Positions 711-14,240 of a DNA stretch of 16,000 bases are shown here, in pieces. The notes beneath the pieces were generated by a model. The model was not told where the DNA came from. It did no database searches and saw nothing but the letters and a program-made list of their open reading frames with translations. How positions within the stretch are numbered: position 1 is the stretch's first letter; every line of letters begins with the position of its first letter. The translations under genes and the position numbers were made by a program. Source of the stretch: Poriferisphaera sp. WC338. Its GTDB lineage: Bacteria > Planctomycetota > Phycisphaerae > Phycisphaerales > Phycisphaeraceae. The DNA lies in assembly GCF_050931845.1 (NCBI RefSeq), contig NZ_CP194516.1, positions 2,858,017 through 2,874,016 on the forward strand. The letters are read 5' to 3'.

Positions 711-3491
711 TCAGGATTGTTCGTGCTTACGTTCTAGCTCAATGAATTGCGTTTCAAACTTTAGGCCACCGAGCTTGGAATCACGAAGACGGAGCTGCCG
801 AATATGCAGCGGGATATCATCGGTTTTATAATTGAGCTTATCACTGATTTGCAGCTGGCGAAGCCATGCATGCCAATAGTGCGTCGGGTATGGAGGCTCT
901 GGGATACTGGTAATGATACGTGCGTAATGCTTCGCGGCAGCTCGGAGAGAACCATCTGTGTTTTGATTGAATTGTAATTCAGCAAGTGTCTGGATGAGGT
1001 CAAGATTGTCGGGGAAGGAAGATTCAAGGGCTTGAAGATCGGCGGCTGCTTGATCGTAGTTGCCGAGAAGTTGTTGAGCTTTGGCGCGAATGATTGCACA
1101 TGAAAGCATGTATGATGAGGAAAGACGGTTCTCTTTGGCGTAATCAATGAGTACGTCTGCAATTTGCACGGCAGCTGTTGCACGATGACGCAACGCGGTC
1201 GGAATCGATTTGGCGATGGCTTGCTCCGCAATGTCATCCATTTCACGCCCAAACTGGAGCAAAAGCTTATCTAAAACAGGGGCGGCTCGCTGCGGATCAT
1301 TTTTCATATAATCTTGAGCCACGCGAATAGCTTGATCGTGTTGCGCCGAAGCAATCAAAGCAGTCGAACGGATTTGAAAAGCATTAGGTAGAAGGTCATC
1401 AAGGTCGATGAAATCAGATTCAAAGTTGCCGAGTAACTTGATAGCATAGCTGTACTCTTCAGACCGCAAAGCAACTGAGGCGCGAACAATCGTCGCAGCA
1501 GCAAGCGCATAACGAACAGCCTTGCGGCGAAAAGAATCAAGGTTGTTTTTCTCAAGCTCCCGTGCAGCTTCCCGCTTCACACGATCTGCACGACGGTCGA
1601 TGTCGGCACGGATGCGAAGATATTTTGCATTGCCGATTGTGTCGTCTGCAATTTCCGTATCCAGGCAGAATAGTGCTTCACGTTGAGCATCAAAGTATTG
1701 CGGATGATCAAACGGCACACGGTCATATTGTTTAATTGCTTCATCGTACTGGCCGGCAGGCTGAAGAACGTGATAAGCATAAAAAACACGTTGATTGTCA
1801 GCTGCTTCTGAGATCGGGAAGAAATTAAACAGAACTTCTGTGGTTTGGATAAACTGCTCACGAATGCCGGGGAGTGCAGGATTTTCTTCAAAAAGCTGCT
1901 GTAATTGTGCGATCGAGAAATTGATCGCACGAGAAGCGTCGCCATGATCAGGATACTGTTGAGCGAGGCTGGTAAGCTGTTTAGAAACCTCAAGTAGATG
2001 CTTGGGAGACGGCGGCTTGGATTGATAAAAAGCAACCGTTTTGTTGTAGAGCGCATGAGCGCGAATGTCTTCAGGAATAGTGGGACTGGTGAGCGATTCA
2101 GCAAGCATGATCACACGTTGAAGCTGTTGCTTTGTTTCCGCATCCGTTGATGAATCATCCGGAGTTTGCACTTTTTGAAGAGCAAAATCTGTCATCATCA
2201 AACGAACACGCGGCGGAAGCTTATCAATCGCGTCCTGCTTAGCAAGCAAAGTGTCCCAGCGAAGAGCGATATAGTAACGCACCTGCTCTTTCTGAGCTTC
2301 GGAAAGCTGATCGTCCTCGAGGAGCTTGAAATAAGGTGAAAAAATATCTGCAGATGGATCGACAGCAAGCACACGGTAGTGCATGTCGGTGAGCATGATG
2401 CGGAAAGTGAGATTAGATTTAGCAAGCGGATGTTGCTTGAGTTGATCCAAGAGTGTGATTGCAGCAGCGAACTCGCCGGACTCAATCATGATGCGAGCTT
2501 GAGTGAGATTGGCGGTAAGATTGAGCAAGTCAGAATGACGGGCGCTGAGCACGGGGTTAAGCAGTTTGATGGCGGCGGTGTTATTACCCATTTGCAAAAG
2601 AGCGCGGGAAGCAAGAACCATAGATGCAAAACGGATGCCGGCTTCATCGCCACGGTCAGTGATAAAACGTTCTGTGTTTTGAAGTACAAGGTTGAGCAGG
2701 CGCATACGTTCGTTATCAGGCTGCATTTTGCGGCCGAGCAGCTTGTATTCAGTCGGCGCAGTGTAGTAGGATTCGGTGCGAGGGATCGCGGTGACATATA
2801 AAGCGGCGAGTGCCTGGAAGAAAGGGGTGCGTTTATGATCGTATTCGTCGAAGAGACGCTGGATGAGGCCGGAGCGTTGTAGCTGCGGCGCGTTAGCAGC
2901 GCGAGGAAGAATGGTTTGAAGTTCGAAGAGACGCTGCTTGGCACGGGTGGTAAGTTGAAGCGCTTCGATGGCTGCAACTTGGAAAGCTTGAGATTGTTGT
3001 GGTGTGGGTTGCCCAAATGTATAAGCCTCAGCAGCAAATTGATGAAGGACTTGCAATTGCTCGATAAGTAGAAGCTCAGCAAAGTCCGTCTGCCAAATCG
3101 GACATCGCGGGTTGTCGGTGAATTGATTGATGATGGCGTGGTATTGCTGAACCAGTGCAGCGAATTGATCACGTGCCTGGGCTTGAAGTTTTACAGCGGC
3201 AGGATCATTGGTTTTGGCTGCAGTAATAGCGGCTTCAGTGAGTTGTTTGTACTGAAGGCGGTGTTCGATCAATTTACGTTCAGCACGGATAGCAGAACGA
3301 TCTTCTGGAAATTGATCGGGGGATGTGAGGCGAATAGCGAGATCATGATCCCCTTGAGAAACGACGTAGTCGGCAATAGTTTGTGCCGCAAAATTCTGAT
3401 TGCATACCAAAAATACAACGCAAAAAACGGCGGACATCAAGAATGTGATGCCGTAGGTTGAGAGACTTCGTTTTGACCATTTGATCATCAT
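711..3491 (-). CDS. membrane-anchored TPR-like all-helical repeat protein (926 aa)
   Basis: Uninterrupted 926-codon ORF. N-terminal hydrophobic anchor or signal ITFLMSAVFCVVFLVCNQNFAAQ. The remainder is Ala/Leu/Gln-rich helical repeat sequence with TPR-like units (e.g. AKAQQLLGNYDQAAADLQALESSFPDNLDLIQTLAELQF). The start ATG overlaps the upstream ExbD stop (ATGA, 3488-3491). The TPR call is a compositional and motif impression, not a profile hit. Confidence 0.8.
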   Translation of the reverse strand: MMIKWSKRSLSTYGITFLMSAVFCVVFLVCNQNFAAQTIADYVVSQGDHDLAIRLTSPDQFPEDRSAIRAERKLIEHRLQYKQLTEAAITAAKTNDPAAVKLQAQARDQFAALVQQYHAIINQFTDNPRCPIWQTDFAELLLIEQLQVLHQFAAEAYTFGQPTPQQSQAFQVAAIEALQLTTRAKQRLFELQTILPRAANAPQLQRSGLIQRLFDEYDHKRTPFFQALAALYVTAIPRTESYYTAPTEYKLLGRKMQPDNERMRLLNLVLQNTERFITDRGDEAGIRFASMVLASRALLQMGNNTAAIKLLNPVLSARHSDLLNLTANLTQARIMIESGEFAAAITLLDQLKQHPLAKSNLTFRIMLTDMHYRVLAVDPSADIFSPYFKLLEDDQLSEAQKEQVRYYIALRWDTLLAKQDAIDKLPPRVRLMMTDFALQKVQTPDDSSTDAETKQQLQRVIMLAESLTSPTIPEDIRAHALYNKTVAFYQSKPPSPKHLLEVSKQLTSLAQQYPDHGDASRAINFSIAQLQQLFEENPALPGIREQFIQTTEVLFNFFPISEAADNQRVFYAYHVLQPAGQYDEAIKQYDRVPFDHPQYFDAQREALFCLDTEIADDTIGNAKYLRIRADIDRRADRVKREAARELEKNNLDSFRRKAVRYALAAATIVRASVALRSEEYSYAIKLLGNFESDFIDLDDLLPNAFQIRSTALIASAQHDQAIRVAQDYMKNDPQRAAPVLDKLLLQFGREMDDIAEQAIAKSIPTALRHRATAAVQIADVLIDYAKENRLSSSYMLSCAIIRAKAQQLLGNYDQAAADLQALESSFPDNLDLIQTLAELQFNQNTDGSLRAAAKHYARIITSIPEPPYPTHYWHAWLRQLQISDKLNYKTDDIPLHIRQLRLRDSKLGGLKFETQFIELERKHEQS

Positions 3492-4003
3492 GAGTTTACT
3501 TTGGCAAAGGCGATGTTTTCATAGCCAGCGGCCATAGCGGCGTTAAAGGCGTTCACGACGTGTTGCCAGCGGACTTGTTGTTGTGGTTTGATGAGGATGG
3601 GGTTGGTGGGGCGATAGACACCATTACGTTTTTGTGCAGGATCGTATTGAAGGTCAATAAGCATGTCACGAAGTTGACTGAAGGATGCGGTGGTGGGCAT
3701 GCCTTGAACCTCAATGCGAACGTTGTGGTAGCCGACGGTTTGAAGGGTAATGACGATAGGCTGCTCTGGGATTTGAAGCGCATCAGTAGCTTGATCGCCA
3801 CCGGTGGGAAGCTCGGCAGTCAGCGCTCCCTCACCAACCGCAAAGGAAGCGGTGACCATGAAGTAGATAAGCAGCTGGAAGATGACATCAATGAGCGGCG
3901 TAATTTGCAGTTGCATCTGCGCAGGGGGAACAATACGACGCTTACGTGAAGATTGATGCTTCACGGGCTGACTGAGTGAGGATGTTTGCGTTTGCTGGGT
4001 CAT
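3488..4003 (-). CDS. exbD: ExbD/TolR-family protein (paralog 2)
   Basis: 171 aa. Hallmark single TM with QITPLIDVIFQLLIYFMV, including the conserved TM Asp (D39, nt 3887-3889). Periplasmic C-terminal alpha/beta region ends AGYENIAFA. No clear SD, so the start at 4003 is the longest ORF and could be slightly further downstream. Confidence 0.88.
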   Translation of the reverse strand: MTQQTQTSSLSQPVKHQSSRKRRIVPPAQMQLQITPLIDVIFQLLIYFMVTASFAVGEGALTAELPTGGDQATDALQIPEQPIVITLQTVGYHNVRIEVQGMPTTASFSQLRDMLIDLQYDPAQKRNGVYRPTNPILIKPQQQVRWQHVVNAFNAAMAAGYENIAFAKVNS

Positions 4004-4032: not shown

Positions 4033-4527
4033 TTAGGGAGTGCCTTGATCCGCGGGGAGATAGGCGACAAGATTCACCGTACTAATGCCGGCGGCAGTGA
4101 TGGCGTTCATAATGGGCTGAACTTCATCGAAATAGATCGCAGCATCGGCACGGAGCATGACTGGGGCCTTAGGAAATTGTTCGGCGAGTGACTTGACCGC
4201 TTCAGCGATCTCCTGCAATTCGGTAGGCTCGAATTTTTGGAATGGCCCGACCTGAACAAAACGCACATTCCCTTCTAGCTCCAGCGGTTTAAAACGATCG
4301 CGATCGCTCGCTTGTACAGGAGCAACACTAATCACGATACGGTCGAGTTCGGCAAGCTGATGCGTCTGTGGGTCTTCGAGTTCGGGCACAAGCATCTTGA
4401 CAGTTTGCTTGGAGGCCATGGTATTGACGAGCATGAAGAAGATCACAAGCAGGAACACGATATCGATCAGCGGCGTGAGATTCATCCGCGGGGTCGCTGG
4501 TCCTCGTTTATGGATTCGTGATTTCAT
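4033..4527 (-). CDS. exbD: ExbD/TolR-family protein (paralog 1)
   Basis: 164 aa. MNLTPLIDIVFLLVIFFML is the canonical ExbD/TolR N-terminal TM motif with the conserved Asp (D22, nt 4462-4464). The C-terminal VMLRADAAIYFDEVQPIMNAITAAGISTVNLV matches the family periplasmic domain pattern. Confidence 0.9.
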   Translation of the reverse strand: MKSRIHKRGPATPRMNLTPLIDIVFLLVIFFMLVNTMASKQTVKMLVPELEDPQTHQLAELDRIVISVAPVQASDRDRFKPLELEGNVRFVQVGPFQKFEPTELQEIAEAVKSLAEQFPKAPVMLRADAAIYFDEVQPIMNAITAAGISTVNLVAYLPADQGTP

Positions 4528-4566: not shown

Positions 4567-5526
4567 TTATTTTTTAGTGGTGTTGCCAAAGAGGTCGGCG
4601 TCGCCATTGTTTGGATTTGACTTTGCCGTGTTTTGCTCAGGTTCGATTTCCGCGGCAACTTCCGGTTCATCTTCCGCAACAACAACTGAGGATGCTGCGG
4701 CGGCTTGAGGAGCAACCGCAGAAGGTTGCGATGCTACTGGTGTGGGGCGTTGTACGGTTTGCGGAGTGTTTGCCTGCGCAGCGGCCTGACGGGCAGCTTG
4801 AATTTGTTGTGGGGTTGGTTTGAAAGGCGCAATGATCGATTCAACGATCAAAACACCCTCGGAAGCAAGGGAATCGATCTTATTCCTAATCAGCGCATAG
4901 GAGGCCAGTGCAGGAACTGCAACGACCAACCCCCAGAAGGTGGTGATCAGCGCGGTGGATATACCGGCAGCGAGTTGTGAAGGTTCTGCGTTACCACCTT
5001 CAGCGACGAGTTGCTGGAACGCGCGAATCATACCGTAAACCGTGCCGAATAAACCGATCATGGGAGCGATATTGCCAAGGACATTAAGGTATTCGATGGG
5101 TCGGAGAATTTTGACAGTTTCATTGTCGGCAGATTCTTCGATCGCCCGCTCCATAGCCATAAAACCGTTGGGGGCTTCATGGAGCGTGGCGCTGATGATG
5201 TGTCCGAGGTAAGATTTGTCTTTGTTGGCGTAATCGATGGCTTGACGAAATTGCCGTTGCATGAGAAGCATGTTGACTTTTTTCTTGGTCCCTTCGGGGA
5301 GCATACGGGTACGGCGGTATTGGGTCATGAGGTGGATGGAGAAACCGATGGAAAAGGCGGACATGGCGAGGAGAAGCCAGATGATAAGCAGGCCGAGGAA
5401 ATCGTCTGACCAGAGGAACATGCTGAACCAAGAACCTGTGTCTGCCGCGTCGGCTTGTGCGAAGAGCACAGGTGTGCCAAGCATACAAAGCGCGCTGCCG
5501 AGAAGGATGGAAAATGTTTGACGCAT
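4567..5526 (-). CDS. exbB: MotA/TolQ/ExbB proton-channel family protein with signal peptide and long C-terminal Pro/Ala/Gln-rich tail
   Basis: 319 aa. LGNIAPMIGLFGTVYGMIRAF (TM2) and GISTALITTFWGLVVAVPALASY (TM3) are the family core. N-terminal signal-like sequence ILLGSALCMLGTPVLFAQA. Residues about 236-319 form a low-complexity P/A/Q/E tail. Confidence 0.92.
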   Translation of the reverse strand: MRQTFSILLGSALCMLGTPVLFAQADAADTGSWFSMFLWSDDFLGLLIIWLLLAMSAFSIGFSIHLMTQYRRTRMLPEGTKKKVNMLLMQRQFRQAIDYANKDKSYLGHIISATLHEAPNGFMAMERAIEESADNETVKILRPIEYLNVLGNIAPMIGLFGTVYGMIRAFQQLVAEGGNAEPSQLAAGISTALITTFWGLVVAVPALASYALIRNKIDSLASEGVLIVESIIAPFKPTPQQIQAARQAAAQANTPQTVQRPTPVASQPSAVAPQAAAASSVVVAEDEPEVAAEIEPEQNTAKSNPNNGDADLFGNTTKK

Positions 5527-5603
5527 GGCATGGTTCCTATCGTGCGGATTGATCGTGCGAACAGAGACACAATCAGACGCATTGTTTATCGGCTTATGCC
5601 GCT

Positions 5604-6656
5604 TTATTGATACAGTTCATCCTCGGTGACAAAACGGTAGACGCCACCAGTGCCTTCTGCAATAAGGGGCATGGTCCCGGGACGGCCAAGTTCTTCAAGA
5701 GGATCATGGTATAAAAACTGGATGGTGTTGATCTTGGTATTGCTGTGGTTCGCTCTGGCAATCTCGCGGAGTAGATGCTTCTGGTTGACTTCATATTGGC
5801 CTTGGCCGGTGATGTTGTCGGAGAGGAGGTAGATGAGGCCGGGCTTGTATTTGAGAGCTTGTGTGAGGGCTTTGATGGGGTTGGTCTGCTTGCTGGGAAC
5901 GACATTGTGCTTGCGCGGGTCGATCCAGTCGATGACGGCTTGCTTTTGCGAGGCAGTAGCTTGCTTGAGTCCTTTAGGTGGAACTTCAAAAACTTCGTTG
6001 CCTTGAAAGAAGATGACAGTGAAGGTTTGTTTGTCGGAAAGATTGCGGATGGTTTTTTGAAGTTCAAGCAAAACGTATTTCATGGTATCGATAAGCGATC
6101 CGGAGGCGTCAACAACAAAGATGATCTTACGAGCATTACCACCTGAGCCGAAGAAGTTCGTTTTGAACTCGGCACCGCTGGCCATATCAGCCGCAAAGGG
6201 ATTAATCTTGGACGCACCACCTGCCAGACCGATCATGGGAACTTCAGTGACGGGCTTGACGTTGAGAGTGGTTTGCGGGGTGTCGATCTGTGTGATCGAA
6301 CGGCGAGCAGTATTAGAAGTTTGTTCGAGCGGTTTGAAATCGGTTTGCGTCAGCGGCGAACCGGGCGTATCAGAGAGACGGATGTTAGGAACCACGATCT
6401 GCTGATCCTGGATGACGGTCACGGTGGTCCAGACAGCAAAGATCGCGATGAGGATAAGAATGAGATGAATGCCGCCGGAGATGAGCCACGGAGCATAAGC
6501 TGCAAACCCTTCCGGCTTATCGTCTTCAAGCTGAAGATCATCGCCCTGCTCCGCAACCTGCACAGCCAAATCAGCTAATGCCAAATGGGCCGCCTCCCCA
6601 GTTTGAGGAGGATCGGTAGACGATAGCGTGCTGGGGTTTGAACTTTCCTGACTCAT
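5604..6656 (-). CDS. single-pass membrane-anchored von Willebrand factor type A (vWA) domain protein with TonB/TolA-like SxxxH anchor
   Basis: 350 aa. One TM (aa 56-76, PWLISGGIHLILILIAIFAVW), then a linker of about 100 aa, then a vWA fold. The vWA part shows KIIFVVDASGSL (MIDAS DxSxS, nt 6096-6110), KQTNPIKALTQAL (MIDAS Thr) and LIYLLSDNITG (MIDAS Asp). First gene of the minus-strand operon. Confidence 0.85.
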   Translation of the reverse strand: MSQESSNPSTLSSTDPPQTGEAAHLALADLAVQVAEQGDDLQLEDDKPEGFAAYAPWLISGGIHLILILIAIFAVWTTVTVIQDQQIVVPNIRLSDTPGSPLTQTDFKPLEQTSNTARRSITQIDTPQTTLNVKPVTEVPMIGLAGGASKINPFAADMASGAEFKTNFFGSGGNARKIIFVVDASGSLIDTMKYVLLELQKTIRNLSDKQTFTVIFFQGNEVFEVPPKGLKQATASQKQAVIDWIDPRKHNVVPSKQTNPIKALTQALKYKPGLIYLLSDNITGQGQYEVNQKHLLREIARANHSNTKINTIQFLYHDPLEELGRPGTMPLIAEGTGGVYRFVTEDELYQ

Positions 6657-6815: not shown

Positions 6816-6887
6816 GCGCCGTTTGTCGCTTGCTAAACCGAGCCTGGGCAAGTCAATCTATCTTCTATATCAACAGGAGTTTTGAAT

Positions 6888-7970
6888 ATGTGTGCGAGAA
6901 AAGCCAAGGCATTGCGAGCAGCTTTCATCGGCGCAGGCGGAATCGCCAAACCACACCTCGATGCACTTGCAAGGATTGATGAGGTTGAAGTGGTAGCGTT
7001 GGCGGATGTAAATACCAAAGTGATGGAAGAACACGCCGAGGCGTATGCGATTGATTCTTCCGGCTTGTATACGGATTACAAAAAGATGCTGGCAAAAGTG
7101 AAGCCAGAGGTGGTGTTTGTCTGCACCCCAAACGGCTTACACGCACCAGCCTCAATCGCGGCAAGCAAAGCCGGCGCACACGTCATGGTTGAAAAACCTA
7201 TGGCAATGAATGCCCGTGAAGCGAAAAGGATGATCGACGCCGCTAAGAAAGCGCGAAAGAAGATCATCTGCGGTTTGCAGTTTCGATTTGACCCCAAGAC
7301 ACAGTTTTTGAAAAAGCAGGTGGATGCGGGCCAGCTTGGCAACATCATGTTTGGTCGTGTGCAAGCAATGCGACGGCGCGGCATCCCGAACTGGGGTGTA
7401 TTCGGCCAAAAGGAATTACAAGGTGGCGGCCCGATGATCGACATCGGCGTACATGCACTTGAGATGTGTCATTATGTGATGGGTTCACCCAAACCCATAG
7501 CCGCAAGTGGCATGACTTGGACTTACCTCGGCGATAAGCCCAGCGACCAGATCGAATGCCTTTGGCCAAACTGGGATCATAAAAACTATGATGTCGAAGA
7601 TCTTGCTGTCGGCCATATCCGTTTTGACAATGGCGCGGTGATTCATATTGAATCGAGCTTCATCGCACATATAGAGCCGACGTCGATCATGGATTTTCAG
7701 CTTATGGGCACCAAGGGCGGCTGCAAATGGGATTCGTCAACCGTGTCGACCGATCAACACGGCTACATGATTGATTACAAGCCGACGTATAACACGCCGG
7801 GCGATTTTAATGAGAACTTCTATCGCAAGAATCGCAACTTCATTGACCATCTGCTTTATGGCGCTAAGCCGATCGCACCGACAGAGGACGGACTCATGGT
7901 GCAGCAGATGCTTGACGCGATTTATCAATCCGCAGACAAAGGTGGCAAAGAAGTCCGTATCTCACCTTAA
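6888..7970 (+). CDS. Gfo/Idh/MocA-family NAD(P)-dependent oxidoreductase
   Basis: N-terminal Rossmann motif LRAAFIGAGGIAKPHLDAL, then VFVCTPNGLHAPASIAASKAGAHVMVEKPMA (the family EKP motif). The C-terminal alpha/beta domain is typical of the family. I prefer the ATG at 6888 over the track's TTG at 6882 because AGGAG (6875-6879) lies 8 nt upstream of 6888 and only 2 nt from 6882. Confidence 0.9.
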   Translation: MCARKAKALRAAFIGAGGIAKPHLDALARIDEVEVVALADVNTKVMEEHAEAYAIDSSGLYTDYKKMLAKVKPEVVFVCTPNGLHAPASIAASKAGAHVMVEKPMAMNAREAKRMIDAAKKARKKIICGLQFRFDPKTQFLKKQVDAGQLGNIMFGRVQAMRRRGIPNWGVFGQKELQGGGPMIDIGVHALEMCHYVMGSPKPIAASGMTWTYLGDKPSDQIECLWPNWDHKNYDVEDLAVGHIRFDNGAVIHIESSFIAHIEPTSIMDFQLMGTKGGCKWDSSTVSTDQHGYMIDYKPTYNTPGDFNENFYRKNRNFIDHLLYGAKPIAPTEDGLMVQQMLDAIYQSADKGGKEVRISP

Positions 7971-8024: not shown

Positions 8025-8090
8025 CATGCACTAGATACATGAATTAAAAAGGCTTGTATGGCGTTATTGCCCATAGAAGCACGATCGCCC

Positions 8091-8120
8091 TTGACGGCCT
8101 GGGGCAACAGACGTGATACT
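8091..8120 (+). promoter_or_regulatory. putative promoter for the cytochrome b562-like gene
   Basis: TTGACG (8091-8096), 18-nt spacer, GATACT (8115-8120), about 37 nt upstream of the ATG at 8157. By-eye match only. Confidence 0.3.
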
Positions 8121-8156
8121 GTCCTGCATTCACAGCAACAATTACGGAGAAACACC

Positions 8157-8618
8157 ATGCCTAAAGAACAGAATTTCCGCGCTCGTTTTGGTTTGATGAT
8201 CTTTGTCACCCTTGGCTCTTTGGCCTTGCTTGCGCCGCTTAGTTTCGCAGACAAAGACAGCGAGCATGATGAAGTCAACCTGCATGAACTTATGGAAGAT
8301 ATGGAGGATGATTTCAAAGCACTTCGTAAGCAAATTAATAATGCAGATAAAAATGATTCGAGTGTGGAGCTTCTGACGGACCTTCAAGAAGATGCCGTGG
8401 AAGCCAAAGGGTTCATGCCAGACAACGTGCTCGATGCATCTGCGTCAGAAAAGGACGCATTGCAAACTGAATATCTAATTGCGATGAATAAGCTCATCAT
8501 AGAACTCGCACAAACTGAGATTGCCCTGCTTGAAAACGACAACAAGAAGGCGGTCAAAGCACTGGTGAAAGTGCGTGATGTACAAAGAAGTGGCCACAAA
8601 AAATTCAAACACGACTGA
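8157..8618 (+). CDS. secreted cytochrome b562-family four-helix-bundle protein
   Basis: Start chosen at ATG 8157, with GGAGA at 8146-8150. Signal peptide MIFVTLGSLALLAPLSFA. The mature part parallels E. coli cytochrome b562 as I recall it: LHELMEDMEDDFKALRK versus LEDNMETLNDNLKVIEK (axial Met region), and C-terminal RSGHKKFKHD versus RNAYHKKYR (axial His). Confidence 0.7.
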   Translation: MPKEQNFRARFGLMIFVTLGSLALLAPLSFADKDSEHDEVNLHELMEDMEDDFKALRKQINNADKNDSSVELLTDLQEDAVEAKGFMPDNVLDASASEKDALQTEYLIAMNKLIIELAQTEIALLENDNKKAVKALVKVRDVQRSGHKKFKHD

Positions 8619-8640
8619 TTGATATCGATGAATGACTCCG

Positions 8641-8675
8641 GGCTTGCGTGTGAAGACGTGCAAGCCTGATTTTTA
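8641..8675 (+). terminator. hairpin plus T-tract: probable intrinsic terminator or attenuator between the two cytochrome genes
   Basis: 11-bp stem GGCTTGCGTGT (8641-8651) / ACGTGCAAGCC (8656-8666) with two G-U pairs, GAAG tetraloop, then TGATTTTTA (8667-8675). Sits in the 73-nt gap before the ATG at 8692. Confidence 0.5.
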
Positions 8676-8691
8676 TATGACAGGACTCATT

Positions 8692-9675
8692 ATGGCTCGC
8701 CACTTGTTAGTTCGATTGCTGCTCGCATTTGGGATGATGCTCGCTGCGTTACCGTTTGCAATGGCGGAAACAAAAGAACAAACAGTGCCTCCAGCAAATA
8801 CAAGTGGCTCTGCAGGCGAAGCATTGCGGGATATGCATTTAGCATCACAGGTTCATGCGATCTTTAAAGAAAAGTGTTACGACTGCCACGGGGCACACCT
8901 AATCAAGCCGGATGGCGGATTTGGCTATACGCTTGATTTTGAGAAGCTACGGAGTACACCGGACTATATCGTGCCGGGTGATGTGAACAAGTCGTATATT
9001 TACGATCTTGTAGATTTTGGGGACATGCCGCCACTGGATAGTGACGTAGCACAGCTAACCAATCACGAGAAAGAACTTGTGAAGTGGTGGATCGAAGCAG
9101 GTGCACCAGCAATGAAAGTCGTAGACGAACCAATAAAAATCGCATCCATTGCTGCAGAAAAACCAATTGACACTTCTGATAAACCGAAACCAAAATTGGC
9201 GCAAGCAACCGTGACCACAACACCATCTCAGCCAGGCAAACGGTGGCTTAACTTCTTTGGACAATTCCATCCACCCACAACACATTTTCCAATCGCGCTC
9301 TTAATGATGGCCGCATTCGCCGAGTTGCTTTTTGTACTTTCTCGACGAGATGAGCTTAAAAGTGTGGTTCGCTTTTGCATATGGTTTGGCGTAATCGGTG
9401 CCATCTTTTCCGCTAGTCTGGGTTGGGCTGAAGGCGCATATCATCTTATGAAACCCTCTGAATTATGGGCTTTTAATTTGCACCGATTGCTCGGCACAAT
9501 GGTTGCTATCTGGGGTTTGCTCATGCTAATCTACCTTGAAGCGCGTGTTCGTCGGAGTGCCTGTGGCTGCCGAACAGGGTTGCGCGTATTGCTTTTTGTC
9601 GGTGCAATACTGGTATCAATCACCGGATTTCTCGGCGGGCTATTAACCTTCGGTGTTGATCATTACACATTCTGA
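8692..9675 (+). CDS. c-type cytochrome domain (Planctomycete cytochrome c / PSCyt1-like) fused to a 4-TM DUF2231-like membrane domain
   Basis: Start chosen at ATG 8692 (MARHLLVRLLLAFGMMLAALPFAMA signal peptide; AGGA 6 nt upstream). Heme-binding CYDCH at 8875-8889, within FKEKCYDCHG...PDGGFGYTLD...IVPGDVNKSYIYDLV...MPP...EKELVKWWIEAGA, the pattern I associate with PSCyt1. Pro/Lys/Thr linker. The C-terminal FHPPTTHFPIALLMMAAF plus three further TM helices resembles DUF2231. Confidence 0.8.
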   Translation: MARHLLVRLLLAFGMMLAALPFAMAETKEQTVPPANTSGSAGEALRDMHLASQVHAIFKEKCYDCHGAHLIKPDGGFGYTLDFEKLRSTPDYIVPGDVNKSYIYDLVDFGDMPPLDSDVAQLTNHEKELVKWWIEAGAPAMKVVDEPIKIASIAAEKPIDTSDKPKPKLAQATVTTTPSQPGKRWLNFFGQFHPPTTHFPIALLMMAAFAELLFVLSRRDELKSVVRFCIWFGVIGAIFSASLGWAEGAYHLMKPSELWAFNLHRLLGTMVAIWGLLMLIYLEARVRRSACGCRTGLRVLLFVGAILVSITGFLGGLLTFGVDHYTF

Positions 9676-9900
9676 CCACCTTACATTTCCCAACAATACT
9701 GCCAATACACCCGTACTACATCAGACATAAAGCTCTGGTTCTGCACACCAAATCCGCATGTCTACGGCATACATGTCTTTTGAATCTATTCATGAATAAT
9801 ACTTGTTCATGTAGCAAAGAGCGTTTAACATCACATCCGTCGAAACGCGATAACCATCTTTGAATATAACGTTCTGTACTTTCTCTTGGAGCAATATCTC

Positions 9901-10296
9901 ATGGCCGAACAGGTTGAGGGCCGCGCGCACGAGGAGATCGATGCGCCGGACATTTCTAACACACAAACATCCTCCAAAACAAAGCTGGATTACAACAACC
10001 CCAAGGTTGTGACATCCATACAAAAATACTGGGAAGCAAACATCCGTGTGATGGGTATCTTACTCCTGATCTGGGCGGCGGTCGGATTAGGCTGCGGCAT
10101 TCTTTTTGCAGACTGGCTAAATCAGTTCAACTTCCCCGGCACAGGCGCGCCGCTCGGCTTCTGGTTTGCTCAACAAGGATCCATCATTGTCTTTGTGTTC
10201 CTGATCTTAGTTTATGCGATCATCATGAATCGCTTGGATGCTTATCATCAACGAGAGCTTAAAAACCTCCATGAACAAGATGGAGGTGATGCATGA
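9901..10296 (+). CDS. DUF4212 protein (putative solute:sodium symporter small subunit)
   Basis: YWEANIRVMGILLLIWAAVGLGCGILFADWLN...GAPLGFWFAQQGSIIVFVFLILVYAIIMNRLD matches the two-TM DUF4212 pattern found upstream of VC_2705-type symporters. ATG 9901 is preferred, with GGAG at 9888-9891. Its stop overlaps the symporter start (ATGA at 10293-10296). Confidence 0.85.
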   Translation: MAEQVEGRAHEEIDAPDISNTQTSSKTKLDYNNPKVVTSIQKYWEANIRVMGILLLIWAAVGLGCGILFADWLNQFNFPGTGAPLGFWFAQQGSIIVFVFLILVYAIIMNRLDAYHQRELKNLHEQDGGDA

Positions 10297-12326
10297 GCGT
10301 ATTAACTTGGACCTACATCTTCGTCGGATTAACGTTTGGCTTGTACCTCTTCATTGCCTGGCGAGCACGAGTCAAAGACACCAAAGGCTTCTATGTCGCA
10401 GGCCGCGGTGTCCCCGCTTCAGCAAACGGCATGGCCACTGCCGCTGACTGGATGTCGGCGGCTTCATTCATCGGCATGGCAGGACTCATCTCCACCATGG
10501 GATATGCAGGCGGGCAATACCTCATGGGTTGGACCGGCGGGTACGTGCTACTCGCACTCTTACTCGCTCCGTACCTCCGCAAGTTCGGACACTTCACCGT
10601 ACCAGACTTTATCGGTGATCGCTTCTCTTCCAACTTCGCACGCATCGTTGCCGTCATTTGCGCGATCTTTATCTCGTTCACCTATGTCGCCGGTCAAATG
10701 CGCGGCGTCGGCATCGTCTTCTCACGCTTCCTCGAAGTCCCCATTACCTACGGCGTCATCATCGGCATGATCATCGTCTTCATCTACGCCACGCTCGGCG
10801 GCATGAAAGGCATCACTTGGACACAGGTCGCGCAATACTGGATTCTCATCACCGCGTTCCTCATCCCCGCCATCGCGATCTCCATCAAACTCACCGGCAC
10901 GCCCATCCCGCAGCTTGGTCTTGGCGCTCAGATCACCGACACGTCCACACACCTGCTCGACAAACTGAACAACATCGGAAATGATCTAGGGTTTGGATCA
11001 TATACCGCCGCTTCCGGTGCATCCGGCGGGGGCTTTAACAAACTATTGAACATGTTCTGCGTCACCCTCGCGCTTATGGTTGGCACCGCAGGCTTACCTC
11101 ACGTCATCGTGCGATTTTATACGGTGAAGAATGTGAAAGCTGCACGCTGGTCTGCATTCTGGGCGCTGCTCTTTATCGCAGGTTTGTATCTCACTGCACC
11201 AGCAACGGCTGCCTTTGCACGCTACTACATGCTGACAACTTTGAACGGCCGTACCTACGCAATGAATATCGGCGCCGCTGGTATTCAAACCAGTGACGGA
11301 CAAACCATCAGCATGACCAAAGATACGGAGGGGCTTAACCGTGTGATGATCAGCGGCGTGGACGCATCGGCGGCCCTTCCCTACAACCGCTTCAACACTG
11401 CCGAAGGTAAACAGTACTACATCATTCAGCGCGAATCCGGTGACATCATCTCTGAACTGCCACACTGGTATTTCAACTGGGAAAATACCGGTCTGATTGC
11501 ATGGTTTGATGGTAACAATGATGGCCGCGTGTCCTATACTGGACGAGATGACAACGAAGTTTTCCGTGCTGGCGGTGCACTGGCTGGCGCAACTTTCACA
11601 CAATTAAAAGTTGAACATCAGAAATGGCTTGATACCGGTGGTACACAAGGTGCCGATGCACGTGCCACATTGACGAAGGAAGAACTGTCCGGACCAGATA
11701 AGGACATCATCGTCCTAGCCACACCTGAAATGGCCGAGCTTTCCAACTGGATCATCGCATTCATTGCGGCAGGTGGCTTGGCGGCAGCTTTGTCGACTGC
11801 ATCGGGTTTGTTGCTGGTGATCTCATCGTCAGTCGCACACGACCTCTACTTCAATATCTTGAATCCAAAGGCATCGGAAGCATCACGACTCTTGGTCGGA
11901 CGTGTGGTGATTGGATTCGCGGTGGTGGTGGCTGGATTCTTTGGGATCTACCCACCGGGCTTTGTGAGTGAAGTGGTGGCGTTTGCATTTGGCCTCGCTG
12001 CAGCGTCATTCTTCCCGGCAATCGTGCTAGGCATTTTCTCAAAACGTGTCAGCACCGGGCCAGCGGTCATCGGTATGCTGGTCGGGATTATTTTCACCGC
12101 AACATACATCATCGGCGGCGTCTATATGGACATGCCCAACTGGTGCTTCGGGATCAGCACACGCGGCATCGGTGCCGTCGGTATGGTCTTGAACTTCATA
12201 GTAACGTTGGGCTTAACCCCCTTCTTCCCACCACCGAACGAAAATGTCCAAGCCATGGTTGCCGCGATTCGTGAGCCAGAATTCGAACCGCCAGCACCGC
12301 AGATCGAAGAAGCCGTGGTGCATTAG
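10293..12326 (+). CDS. sodium:solute symporter (SSF) family transporter, VC_2705/ActP-like large subunit, with a large hydrophilic insertion
   Basis: 677 aa with multiple TM helices. SSF-type motifs GFYVAGRGVPASANGMATAADWMSAASFIGMAG and GTAGLPHVIVRFYT. GGAGG lies 5 nt upstream. Paired with a DUF4212 gene. Residues about 312-482 are hydrophilic. Confidence 0.92.
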   Translation: MSVLTWTYIFVGLTFGLYLFIAWRARVKDTKGFYVAGRGVPASANGMATAADWMSAASFIGMAGLISTMGYAGGQYLMGWTGGYVLLALLLAPYLRKFGHFTVPDFIGDRFSSNFARIVAVICAIFISFTYVAGQMRGVGIVFSRFLEVPITYGVIIGMIIVFIYATLGGMKGITWTQVAQYWILITAFLIPAIAISIKLTGTPIPQLGLGAQITDTSTHLLDKLNNIGNDLGFGSYTAASGASGGGFNKLLNMFCVTLALMVGTAGLPHVIVRFYTVKNVKAARWSAFWALLFIAGLYLTAPATAAFARYYMLTTLNGRTYAMNIGAAGIQTSDGQTISMTKDTEGLNRVMISGVDASAALPYNRFNTAEGKQYYIIQRESGDIISELPHWYFNWENTGLIAWFDGNNDGRVSYTGRDDNEVFRAGGALAGATFTQLKVEHQKWLDTGGTQGADARATLTKEELSGPDKDIIVLATPEMAELSNWIIAFIAAGGLAAALSTASGLLLVISSSVAHDLYFNILNPKASEASRLLVGRVVIGFAVVVAGFFGIYPPGFVSEVVAFAFGLAAASFFPAIVLGIFSKRVSTGPAVIGMLVGIIFTATYIIGGVYMDMPNWCFGISTRGIGAVGMVLNFIVTLGLTPFFPPPNENVQAMVAAIREPEFEPPAPQIEEAVVH

Positions 12327-12401: not shown

Positions 12402-14240
12402 TCAATCTTCTTTTTCGTCCTGATCAAGATGATCGAGTTTCATGGGTTGAGGTGTATCCATAACCACGACTGTTTGCATGGCCATGTCACCAACACGCTG
12501 ACGGTTCATAGAAATCAACGGAAAGAGAAGCAAAATCGGCACGAGCAAATCGAGTAGCTTAGAAAGACCACGCCCGAGAAGTTGACCTACGGCGGGCTTC
12601 TCACCTTTTATGGTGACGACGCGAATGCCAGCGATTTTTTTGCCAACGGTGCGGCCAGTGGCGATTTCACTGACTGTGGTGTAAAGAATGAAGGCGCCTA
12701 TGATGATCAGCGCAGGGACCATTTTTTCCCATGACAAACCTGCCTCCGCGCCTGGCCAACGACTCCATAATTCAGTAAAGCTAAGATTGAATGAGAACTT
12801 CACGATAAGAACGATCGGAAGGATGTCGATCATGCCAGCATAAAGCCGCTTGGAAAAATCACAGAGCACCATCTGCTTAGGAAGCGCAAGTTTGTTCTGT
12901 GCAGGATCTCGCATCATAAAGATCATGAGGAGAATCATGGCTGCCATCAGTACACCAAAGGTAATCATGTACTGCGCAAAAAGTTCAAACGCTTGCGGCT
13001 CATAGGCAGTAAGTGTGGTGGGTTTACCAATCTCTTTACCTTGGAGATCGAGTTCCGCAAGCGTGAGTGAGACATTGTGCTCAGCGCTGCTGGGTAAAGC
13101 GAAAAGGCTAGGCGTACTGGTGGGTTTTTGGGGCTTATGTTCAGGATTGGCTGCAATGACGCCAAGATGACCGTTGTATGGAACCGCAGCCCATGAGGCA
13201 TCGCTTTTAAGCGGCAAATCTAGTTTCCCGATTTTGAGTTCCTGGTTGTTACGGAGAATATCAAAACCAACAGAAAGGGTGCTGCCGGGTTGCTGCACCG
13301 CCAATGCCAGCTGCTTATTCACTTCGAGCATGGCGAAACCGCGAGCGTTAGGCCAATTGATATTGGTGCGTTGCCAACCTTCCCCATCGTGTTGATAGAT
13401 GCGGATGTTACTGAGATCCGTCACTCCCTGCACCGCCAACACAGGAAAAGCGGCCTGTTCACTGCCAGCGACCATCCATGCCTTGCCAACATGCGGCCAG
13501 TCCAATGGCAAATCAATGAAAGTCCATCGCGCCCGATCATGCACCATCAAGCGGTCAACCGGTTTGCCATCAGTGTTCGTTGATGTTGTGGGGTTCGCAG
13601 ATAATGCGGCTTCTGCGTTAGATTGGGGCTTGGCTTCATCCTGTGTTTGTGGCTCGGATACTGGCTGATCCTCAAGGATGGTGGTGATAGCATTTGAATC
13701 TGCACCATCTTCGATCACTTGATTAGCTTCACGAGTTTTTGCTTCAGCTGCTTTGGCGTCTGCTTCGTTTGCAAATTGTACAAGTGCGAAAGCATTTGTT
13801 TCATTAACCGCCAAACTACGAAGCTCACAATTCACGGTGATGGGCGATTGTGCGGACGAGGTGTACTGCCAGAAATCCTGTGCCACGGATTTGACCGGGC
13901 TGAGTGTTTGAAAGGCAATGCCGTTGTCAATTTTGTAGGCCAACCAGAGTTGTTTGTCACGTACAGCAAGCCCGCCGGGTGCGAGGATTCCTGAGAAAGA
14001 ATGTGCATAGGTAATCTGGCCGGCTTCATCTTTCACATTGCGATGATATACACTGACCTGCGGTACTTTGGCGTCCTGATCATGTGGCTGCACAAACCAG
14101 AGATCTTCACCGTCACTGACTGCAGTCAGTGATTGCGCCTCAGCATGAGCGGAGGCAAAAACACTCACCCATGCCGTACCCACCAACATCAGCATGAGCC
14201 AAAGACCCCGATAACACCTTCTTGCGTTTGTGATCATCAT
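12402..14240 (-). CDS. RDD-family membrane protein with signal peptide and a roughly 400-aa N-terminal extracytoplasmic region
   Basis: 612 aa. Signal peptide LWLMLMLVGTAWVSVFASAHA. Beta-rich region split by an acidic, low-complexity linker. TM helix YMITFGVLMAAMILLMIFMM. RDD-like C-terminus (KRLYAGMIDILPIVLIV ... TGRTVGKKIAGIRVV ... NRQRVGDMAMQTVVV). Confidence 0.85.
   Translation of the reverse strand: MMITNARRCYRGLWLMLMLVGTAWVSVFASAHAEAQSLTAVSDGEDLWFVQPHDQDAKVPQVSVYHRNVKDEAGQITYAHSFSGILAPGGLAVRDKQLWLAYKIDNGIAFQTLSPVKSVAQDFWQYTSSAQSPITVNCELRSLAVNETNAFALVQFANEADAKAAEAKTREANQVIEDGADSNAITTILEDQPVSEPQTQDEAKPQSNAEAALSANPTTSTNTDGKPVDRLMVHDRARWTFIDLPLDWPHVGKAWMVAGSEQAAFPVLAVQGVTDLSNIRIYQHDGEGWQRTNINWPNARGFAMLEVNKQLALAVQQPGSTLSVGFDILRNNQELKIGKLDLPLKSDASWAAVPYNGHLGVIAANPEHKPQKPTSTPSLFALPSSAEHNVSLTLAELDLQGKEIGKPTTLTAYEPQAFELFAQYMITFGVLMAAMILLMIFMMRDPAQNKLALPKQMVLCDFSKRLYAGMIDILPIVLIVKFSFNLSFTELWSRWPGAEAGLSWEKMVPALIIIGAFILYTTVSEIATGRTVGKKIAGIRVVTIKGEKPAVGQLLGRGLSKLLDLLVPILLLFPLISMNRQRVGDMAMQTVVVMDTPQPMKLDHLDQDEKED

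Follow-up and report, generated by a model that had tools for sequence, protein, structure and literature searches.

The 16,000-nucleotide window analysed here, from Poriferisphaera sp. WC338 (contig NZ_CP194516.1, positions 2,858,017 to 2,874,016), carries on its minus strand a gene (5604..6656) for a 350-residue protein that is 100% identical to the 'vWA domain-containing protein' of this organism. We consider it likely that this gene encodes a TonB/TolA-like force transducer which is coupled to the proton motive force (PMF) and bears a von Willebrand A (vWA) head with a metal ion-dependent adhesion site (MIDAS). Coupling to the adjacent ExbB/ExbD-like motor, which the original prediction had proposed from a Ser-x3-His motif in the single transmembrane (TM) helix of the protein, is supported by comparative and model-based evidence, namely synteny, two residues of the ExbB-like protein (S56 and P205), a motif that resembles the TonB D-box and a published AlphaFold3 (AF3) model of a homolog. 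Force transducers of the vWA type with this motif and gene neighbourhood have been proposed, from sequence and structure prediction, for the PVC (Planctomycetes, Verrucomicrobia, Chlamydiae) group by Williams-Jones et al. 2025 (Mol Biol Evol 42:msaf138); the concept is already published, and the points on Phycisphaerae given below are refinements and not a new kind of system.

Translation of 5604-6656 reproduces every coordinate originally given for the anchor. Residues 56-76, which read PWLISGGIHLILILIAIFAVW, form the core segment (6429-6491, minus strand, as are all features up to the neighbouring genes described later) of a helix that spans residues 50-79 (6420..6509) and is predicted by AlphaFold2 (AF2), using a 46-sequence alignment, with pLDDT values of 85-96. 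Ser60 is encoded at 6477..6479 and His64, the counterpart of TonB H20 and TolA H22, at 6465..6467. The Escherichia coli anchors cited for comparison were correct as well, with full-length matches to PDB chains 9ddo_F and 9k49_H, and they are printed in a cryo-electron microscopy (cryo-EM) paper as PWPTLLSVCIHGAVVAGLLY for TonB (S16/H20) and AIIISAVLHVILFAALIW for TolA (S18/H22).

Conservation of the two residues was assessed in the best 120 homologs (42-65% identity) and in 148 additional sequences that each represent a cluster at 50% identity. Amongst the close homologs, the position of His64 is occupied by His in 119/119 sequences and that of Ser60 by Ser in 112, Ala in 6 and Thr in 1; P56 (113), W57 (114), Ala71 (115) and Trp76 (117) are also retained in most of these 119 sequences, while the remaining helix positions vary among hydrophobic residues. 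A membrane His is present in 131 of the 148 cluster representatives, and four residues before it these have Ser (119), Ala (7) or Thr (4); most of the 17 representatives without it are either fragments truncated at the N-terminus or forms with a signal peptide. Divergent tandem paralogs keep the His and have lost the Ser. As a crude background, none of 329 TM-like 21-mers from other long open reading frames (ORFs) of 81 related loci contained the spaced Ser and His, and together with the conservation this indicates that the motif is more than a chance occurrence. The question whether Ser and His are conserved among orthologs is thereby answered in favour of the proposal, His being invariant in close homologs and Ser present in ~91-94% of sequences. 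The Pro-Trp pair said to precede the motif is also found, but not in the register of TonB, since the Trp lies 3 residues before the Ser here and 5 in TonB. In three rare members of the family (P0195, P0249 and P0254), the membrane His is replaced by Trp or Tyr.

The overall layout described earlier, with an N-terminal anchor, a linker and a C-terminal globular vWA domain, is borne out by the AF2 model and by Foldseek. The linker, residues 80-172 (93 residues; 6141..6419), is predicted to be disordered (pLDDT ~40-59), has a length of 65-133 residues in the family (mean 94) and is rich in Ala, Gly, Ser and Thr. The extended, Pro/Thr/Gln-containing linker that had been described as TonB-like is not Pro-rich, with a Pro content of 8.6% in the window protein and a family mean of 7.3%. 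Most of the linker is variable, except for a stretch that directly follows the helix and includes an acidic run (residues 83-86), I88/I89 and R93-L94-S95. Within it lies a conserved linear motif, QIVVPNIRLSDTPG (residues 86-99; 6360..6401), with the family consensus EVIIPxARLSxTPGA, in which P90 is found in 119/119 close homologs, P98 in 112 and G99 in 105, so that both prolines are conserved in at least 94%. In TonB, residues 43-54 (QPISVTMVTPAD) constitute a Pro-flanked strand that is captured by the ExbD periplasmic-domain dimer (Loll et al. 2024). When P90-NIRLSDT-P98 is set beside TonB P44-ISVTMVT-P52, seven residues separate the prolines in both, the alternation of hydrophobic and hydrophilic residues is similar though not identical, and the motif begins 26 residues past the His here as against 24 in TonB. 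By this analogy, the P90-x7-P98 motif is a good candidate for a D-box, or 'motor box', that could be captured by ExbD.

The C-terminal vWA domain comprises residues 175-350 (5607..6134) and is modelled with pLDDT >90. Its score against Pfam VWA_3 is 22.1 bits, below the cut-off of 27 bits, and a Foldseek search recovered ITIH1, the calcium-channel alpha2-delta subunit, the anthrax-toxin receptor (ANTXR) and integrin I domains with E-values from 1e-11 to 1e-6. The integrin I, ITIH1 and anthrax-toxin-receptor domains share the fold and a complete MIDAS with the window protein at 14-20% identity. Such domains are known to bind acidic ligand residues through a metal, and integrins to work under tension. 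The MIDAS signature D183-A-S-G-S187 (6096-6110) is strongly conserved, with D183 in 120/120, S185 in 114/120, S187 in 119/120 and D280 in 120/120 sequences, and an intact site of this kind argues for a specific ligand of the vWA domain. One family member of 1049 residues (P0201) carries the vWA domain at the C-terminus of an unrelated N-terminal region of ~800 residues, which may represent a different architecture or result from faulty gene calling.

The vWA gene is the first of six tightly spaced genes on the minus strand of the window. It is followed by genes for an ExbB/TolQ-like proton-channel subunit of 319 residues (4567..5526; PF01618, 98.4 bits against a cut-off of 22.9), two ExbD/TolR-like subunits of 164 residues (4033..4527; PF02472, 72.8 bits against a cut-off of 25.4) and 171 residues (3488..4003; 65.3 bits against the same cut-off), and a tetratricopeptide repeat (TPR) protein of 926 residues (711..3491) that has an N-terminal signal-type hydrophobic segment, is the last conserved member of the cluster and is a candidate periplasmic partner; the sixth is a small ArsC/glutaredoxin-like gene (313-669). 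The stop codon of the second ExbD-like gene and the start of the TPR gene overlap by 4 nucleotides (3488-3491), which suggests translational coupling of the motor and the TPR protein. The ExbB-like and ExbD-like proteins fall below the equivalog cut-offs of the NCBIfam TolQ, TolR and ExbB models, and score higher against the TolQ/TolR than against the ExbB/ExbD models. No TonB_C or TolA-type gene that could be the real partner of the motor was detected among the window ORFs with Pfam and NCBIfam.

A scan of one genome per species yielded 79 related loci, all from Phycisphaerae or unclassified Planctomycetota, in which ORFs were called and searched with the window proteins. In 71 of the 77 informative loci the order vWA-(x)-ExbB-ExbD-ExbD-TPR (~930 residues) is preserved with the vWA gene upstream, over a range of 36-65% identity. 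Tandem vWA paralogs are common, with 2-3 per locus. A divergent clade of upstream paralogs (e.g. L040 7284-8762, L041 6461-7948, L056 7349-8857 and L064 7115-8761) combines the retained His and lost Ser with an Arg-rich N-terminal flank and a far longer linker. In ~58 of the 71 syntenic loci, an additional gene for a signal-peptide protein of ~350-400 residues lies between the vWA gene and ExbB (e.g. L004 10015-11058, L008 11052-12161 and L009 9918-11105), and the C-terminal ~110 residues of this protein are conserved and TPR-like (…YxDAGLSFMRVxxxFPxS..GPA..EAGxVH…). This gene is absent from the window, where a gap of 77 nucleotides (5527-5603) is found instead and no homolog occurs elsewhere, and also from the closest related locus (L003). 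In one paralog (P0221; L024 9935-11200), a Sec-type signal peptide and the N-terminal domain of this extra protein are fused to the vWA domain and replace the TM anchor and linker; the fusion shows export of the vWA domain in this case and is a hint that the extra protein and the vWA head work jointly.

The residues that would receive the anchor were examined on the motor side. In the cryo-EM structures from E. coli, TonB S16/H20 contact S34 and W38 in TM1 of ExbB, and W38 touches P190 in TM3; TolA S18/H22 make the same contacts with S28, W32 and P187 of TolQ. The window protein and 68 ExbB-like proteins from the related loci were aligned by MAFFT to ExbB and TolQ of E. coli, and the family profile was independently compared with E. 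coli ExbB by hhalign. S56 (5359-5361) aligns with ExbB S34/TolQ S28 and is present in 68/68 sequences. P205 (4912-4914), aligned with P190/P187, and T196, aligned with the pore Thr (T181/T178), are likewise present in 68/68, and for all three residues the match to E. coli ExbB is given by both methods. An alternative hand alignment of TM1, in which IGFSI of the window protein was placed on IGFSI of TolQ and S63 thus paired with S28, was discarded for lack of conservation at S63; S56, in contrast, is invariant and is the residue that MAFFT and hhalign pair. The TM Asp is found in every sequence of both ExbD paralogs (Asp22 of the first in 58/58, Asp39 of the second in 70/70), an argument in favour of a functional heterodimeric rotor. 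Two other Trp residues mark the ExbB-like family, W198 in TM3, which is new and invariant, and W50 in TM1, which is mostly conserved (58/68); the window member has an N-terminal signal-like segment and, in this organism, a Pro/Gln/Ala-rich low-complexity C-terminal tail of ~85 residues.

The published class consists of vWA proteins tethered to the inner membrane, with an SHLS TM helix, a disordered linker containing a 'motor box', a domain II of ~100 residues and a distribution over Proteobacteria, Planctomycetes, Verrucomicrobia, Bacteroidetes and Rhodothermaeota (msaf138). Its seed is a pair of paralogous transducers from Tichowtungia aerotolerans (Kiritimatiellota), and in the AF3 model of this homologous system the conserved His binds to the motor in the manner of TonB and TolA, 'precisely as observed' there (msaf138). 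A BLASTP comparison of the window protein with the seed gave an E-value of 5e-9 at 23% identity, collinear from ISxGIH into the vWA domain, and hhalign gave a probability of 97.6%. According to the supplement of that paper, the seed helix reads AAISIGIHALLIILAGSIVAI, with S31/H35 and, at the positions of Leu and Ser, A42/V46, which is the same S-H-A-V pattern as in the window protein. Common to both are also the disordered linker of ~100 residues with its juxtamembrane 'motor/stator box', the C-terminal vWA domain, and a neighbourhood that holds, besides a TPR gene, a single tolQ-like gene and two tolR-like genes that differ from each other, in a class that includes Planctomycetes. As judged from sequence and structural models, the window protein thus shows every defining feature of the class that was tested: the TM Ser and His, the linker with its juxtamembrane motif, the vWA fold, the gene neighbourhood and homology to the seed. 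A later search of the literature found no other work on such vWA transducers, and nothing specific was found on ExbBD of Poriferisphaera.

Certain features set the Phycisphaerae members apart. Here the transducer gene is upstream of the motor and the TPR gene is last, whereas the paper places the transducers downstream; the MIDAS is invariant in Phycisphaerae (DxSxS...D), while the seed has DANKL and a vWA region ~120 residues longer; and the N-terminal tail is acidic here but basic in the seed. In the portions of msaf138 consulted we did not find a description of the S-H half-motif with a near-invariant Ala seven residues after the His, of the intact MIDAS in Phycisphaerae as against its loss in the seed, of an ExbB in which the Ser and Pro are retained and the Trp is missing, of a juxtamembrane motif with the Pro-x7-Pro form of the TonB D-box, of the transducer-first, TPR-last gene order, or of the extra periplasmic protein of ~350 residues that most related loci encode and Poriferisphaera misses.

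Several observations nevertheless weigh against a force transducer that docks as TonB and TolA do. The complete SHLS pattern of TonB and TolA (S-x3-H-x6-L-x3-S) is absent, as the seventh residue after the His is Ala (A71; 115/119) and the eleventh Val or Ile (V75), in place of the Leu and Ser of TonB and TolA, and only the S-H half is seen; the Leu and Ser of SHLS are, according to the cryo-EM paper, less conserved among TonBs too. An anchor profile (residues 50-100, 27 sequences) retrieved neither TonB nor TolA from all PDB sequences at E <= 10, and in Pfam searches the anchor and linker matched no family at E <= 10; the resemblance is therefore one of a short motif and of architecture and not of demonstrable anchor homology. 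The only PDB matches of the anchor profile were to V-ATPase subunit e, which we judged to be due to chance, and the full-length family profile found nothing in the PDB at E <= 1. A helical conservation-moment test gave no significant result for a single conserved face (p = 0.27), F73 and W76 being conserved outside the one that bears the Ser and His. The position of Trp38 of ExbB and Trp32 of TolQ is taken by Ile, Val, Met or Leu in the family (I60 in the window protein), and since this Trp packs against TonB His20 and TolA His22, the interface cannot be identical. Moreover, the linker is not proline-rich or rigid, unlike that of TonB; the candidate D-box is not folded as a strand in the AF2 monomer; 6 of the 77 loci have no adjacent motor; and no phenotype is known for any member of the class (msaf138). 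Finally, both flanks of the helix are acidic in the family, the N-terminal tail having a mean net charge of ~-7, and with flanking charges uninformative the topology has to rest on homologs. Sequence comparison indicates that the docking interface, if it exists, is remodelled, with the Ser and the relay Pro kept and the Trp lost.

How far these observations favour other explanations has to be considered. The missing TonB and TolA matches of the anchor profile, the half-motif and the six orphan loci would fit a Ser-x3-His conserved for a reason that has nothing to do with ExbBD, such as self-association or a role as a BatA/BatB-like protein, with the motor serving some other partner. We regard such a coincidence as the least probable of all readings, since the synteny extends over 71 of 77 loci at 36-65% identity, neither another candidate transducer nor MoxR or DUF58 genes were found among the window ORFs, even the divergent tandem paralogs have the His without exception, and both motif and neighbourhood are shared with the distant Kiritimatiellota seed. 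At least one of the six orphan copies is an extra paralog, with a full locus elsewhere in its genome (L034 and L009 belong to a single metagenome-assembled genome), a pattern familiar from several TonBs sharing one motor. A protein that is coupled to the motor but does not transduce force, be it a static tether, a localisation factor, a regulator, a plug of the motor or a scaffold for the TPR protein, is also unlikely, though it deserves more credit: the linker is flexible, a Trp of the relay network is missing from ExbB, no target with a Ton-box-like partner could be identified, and Loll et al. 2024, in their paper on the D-box, raise the idea that TM contact merely localises TonB. Against it stand a juxtamembrane strand-like motif conserved at the position of the TonB D-box, the invariance of both ExbD Asp residues and of the ExbB Thr and Pro, which argues for an active motor, and the intact MIDAS with the specific ligand that it implies.

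The third alternative concerns topology, for which the positive-inside rule had from the outset been called ambiguous, and the flanking charges proved uninformative indeed. An inverted protein, with its N-terminal tail translocated and its vWA domain in the cytoplasm, would place the Ser and His in the outer leaflet, where they would not be equivalent to TonB S16/H20. The tail with its ~10 acidic against ~3 basic residues would suit this arrangement, as would the finding that Lys and Arg are more numerous in the N-terminal than in the C-terminal flank in only 22% of sequences, and cytoplasmic vWA proteins do exist. The C-terminal flank is itself strongly acidic (EEEE), however, and this speaks just as much against a cytoplasmic location. 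The N-in orientation with a periplasmic vWA domain is favoured by three features of homologs, namely the Lys/Arg-rich N-terminal tail of the Tichowtungia seed (MWKLKRSKS...KKK), the RR immediately before the helix in divergent paralogs, and the Sec-type signal peptide that precedes the vWA domain in place of the anchor in P0221, P0250 and P0264. With the N-terminus inside, the Ser and His would occupy the membrane's cytoplasmic half, as they do in TonB, and face ExbB S56, which is itself in the cytoplasmic half of TM1. We therefore hold the inverted topology to be very improbable, if slightly less so than coincidence. The presumed cytoplasmic tail of the window protein (residues 1-49; 6510-6656) has 11 Asp/Glu and 1 Lys/Arg, unlike TonB, TolA and the Tichowtungia seed, and AF2 gives it a short low-confidence helix at residues 26-36.

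Returning to the force-transducer reading, the following sequence of events can be envisaged. From their family membership, the products of the downstream genes would assemble into a 5:2-type motor, with a pentamer of the ExbB-like protein around a heterodimer of the ExbD-like proteins, each of which carries a proton-binding Asp. The transducer would insert with its N-terminus inside and its single TM helix on the outside of the ExbB ring, and the face formed by W57, S60, H64 and A71 would pack on ExbB TM1 around S56, with a relay to Pro205 in TM3, as the E. coli cryo-EM structures and the AF3 model of the homolog suggest. The motif around P90-x7-P98 would be captured by the periplasmic domains of ExbD just outside the membrane, as is the D-box of TonB. 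Speculatively, ~75 further disordered residues may bring the vWA domain within range of a periplasmic or outer-membrane partner, for which the 926-residue TPR protein or an outer-membrane component are candidates, and the metal-ion site could bind this partner, which proton flow would then pull on or remodel.

By analogy we infer that the vWA protein works in the manner of TonB and TolA, and the likenesses and differences can be listed against each. With TonB (E. coli, PDB 9ddo) it shares an N-terminal single TM helix with Ser-x3-His near the cytoplasmic end, the adjacent ExbB/ExbD-type motor with its conserved TM1 Ser and TM3 Pro, the three-part layout, and a Pro-flanked motif of seven residues at a similar juxtamembrane distance from the His. 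It differs in having a vWA domain where TonB has its C-terminal domain, no polyproline linker, Ala and Val as equivalents of Leu27 and Ser31, a Pro-Trp pair offset by two residues, an ExbB partner without Trp38 and two different ExbD genes. TolA (E. coli, PDB 9ddm and 9k49) docks its Ser18-x3-His22 anchor, the same spacing as here, on S28 and W32 of TolQ, and a TPR protein, CpoB, is encoded in its operon as one is here; the window protein has no TolA domain III, no TolB or Pal genes occur in the window, and the TPR protein of 926 residues is far above the size of CpoB. Membership of the TonB/TolA family proper was considered and discarded, given that Pfam and NCBIfam detect no TonB_C domain or TolA domain III, that SHLS is incomplete and that anchor homology escapes detection by profile. 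The TPH-vWA proteins of msaf138 (Idiomarina seed) are likewise membrane-tethered vWA proteins beside a tolQ-like gene, but they replace TolR, with a helix that carries the pore Asp and lacks Ser/His and with no tolR genes in the locus; the window protein is not one of them because its helix has Ser and His and no Asp, and two tolR-like (ExbD) genes are present. It could not be assigned to the BatA/BatB-type membrane vWA proteins either, as the window ORFs include no MoxR ATPase, DUF58 or further Bat proteins such as would be expected of a Bat-type aerotolerance operon. A Zorya-like defence motor was looked for with PADLOC, which gave zero matches for all five proteins, and in a promoter and terminator scan of the operon the number of sites was not above chance expectation.

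The rest of the window bears genes on both strands. Divergent from the vWA gene and directly upstream of it is a GFO/IDH/MocA oxidoreductase gene (6882-7970, plus strand), which is kept in ~25 related loci. At 8058-9675 (plus strand) follow a cytochrome b562-like protein of 186 residues and a protein with a planctomycete cytochrome c motif (PSCyt1, a weak match) and a DUF2231 membrane domain, unrelated to the present finding. At 9886-12326 (plus strand), the gene for a small DUF4212 membrane protein runs into the start of one for a sodium:solute symporter, a typical pair, and a protein of 612 residues with a C-terminal RDD domain is encoded at 12402-14240 (minus strand).

For long, TonB and TolA were the sole carriers known to dock at the side of 5:2 proton motors and to bring their work across the periplasm. 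A third class of transducer with a different head would make the ExbBD/TolQR motor a general-purpose engine that accepts other tools. As this class is already in print, what the window adds is a well-conserved subfamily with intact MIDAS, together with details of the interface, and not a new concept. All elements can be combined in one joint reading, of which we remain doubtful as a whole: a main device of Phycisphaerae for carrying PMF to the outer envelope, with an integrin I-like head, a tension-switched, metal-dependent bond and a docking interface remodelled by the absence of the ExbB Trp and by an Ala of the transducer at the 'Leu' position of SHLS. If true, the MIDAS would grip an acidic residue of the 926-residue TPR protein or of another periplasmic or outer-membrane partner, and a mechanically gated vWA bond would operate inside a bacterial periplasm. 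Planctomycetes have been reported to lack Pal, and a 2012 survey of Planctomycete genomes found canonical TonB in no more than four of them; in view of this, the locus may be a principal route of PMF to the outer envelope in these organisms. The outer-envelope biology of Planctomycetota is poorly understood, and the locus offers a concrete candidate for the delivery of energy to their outer membrane.

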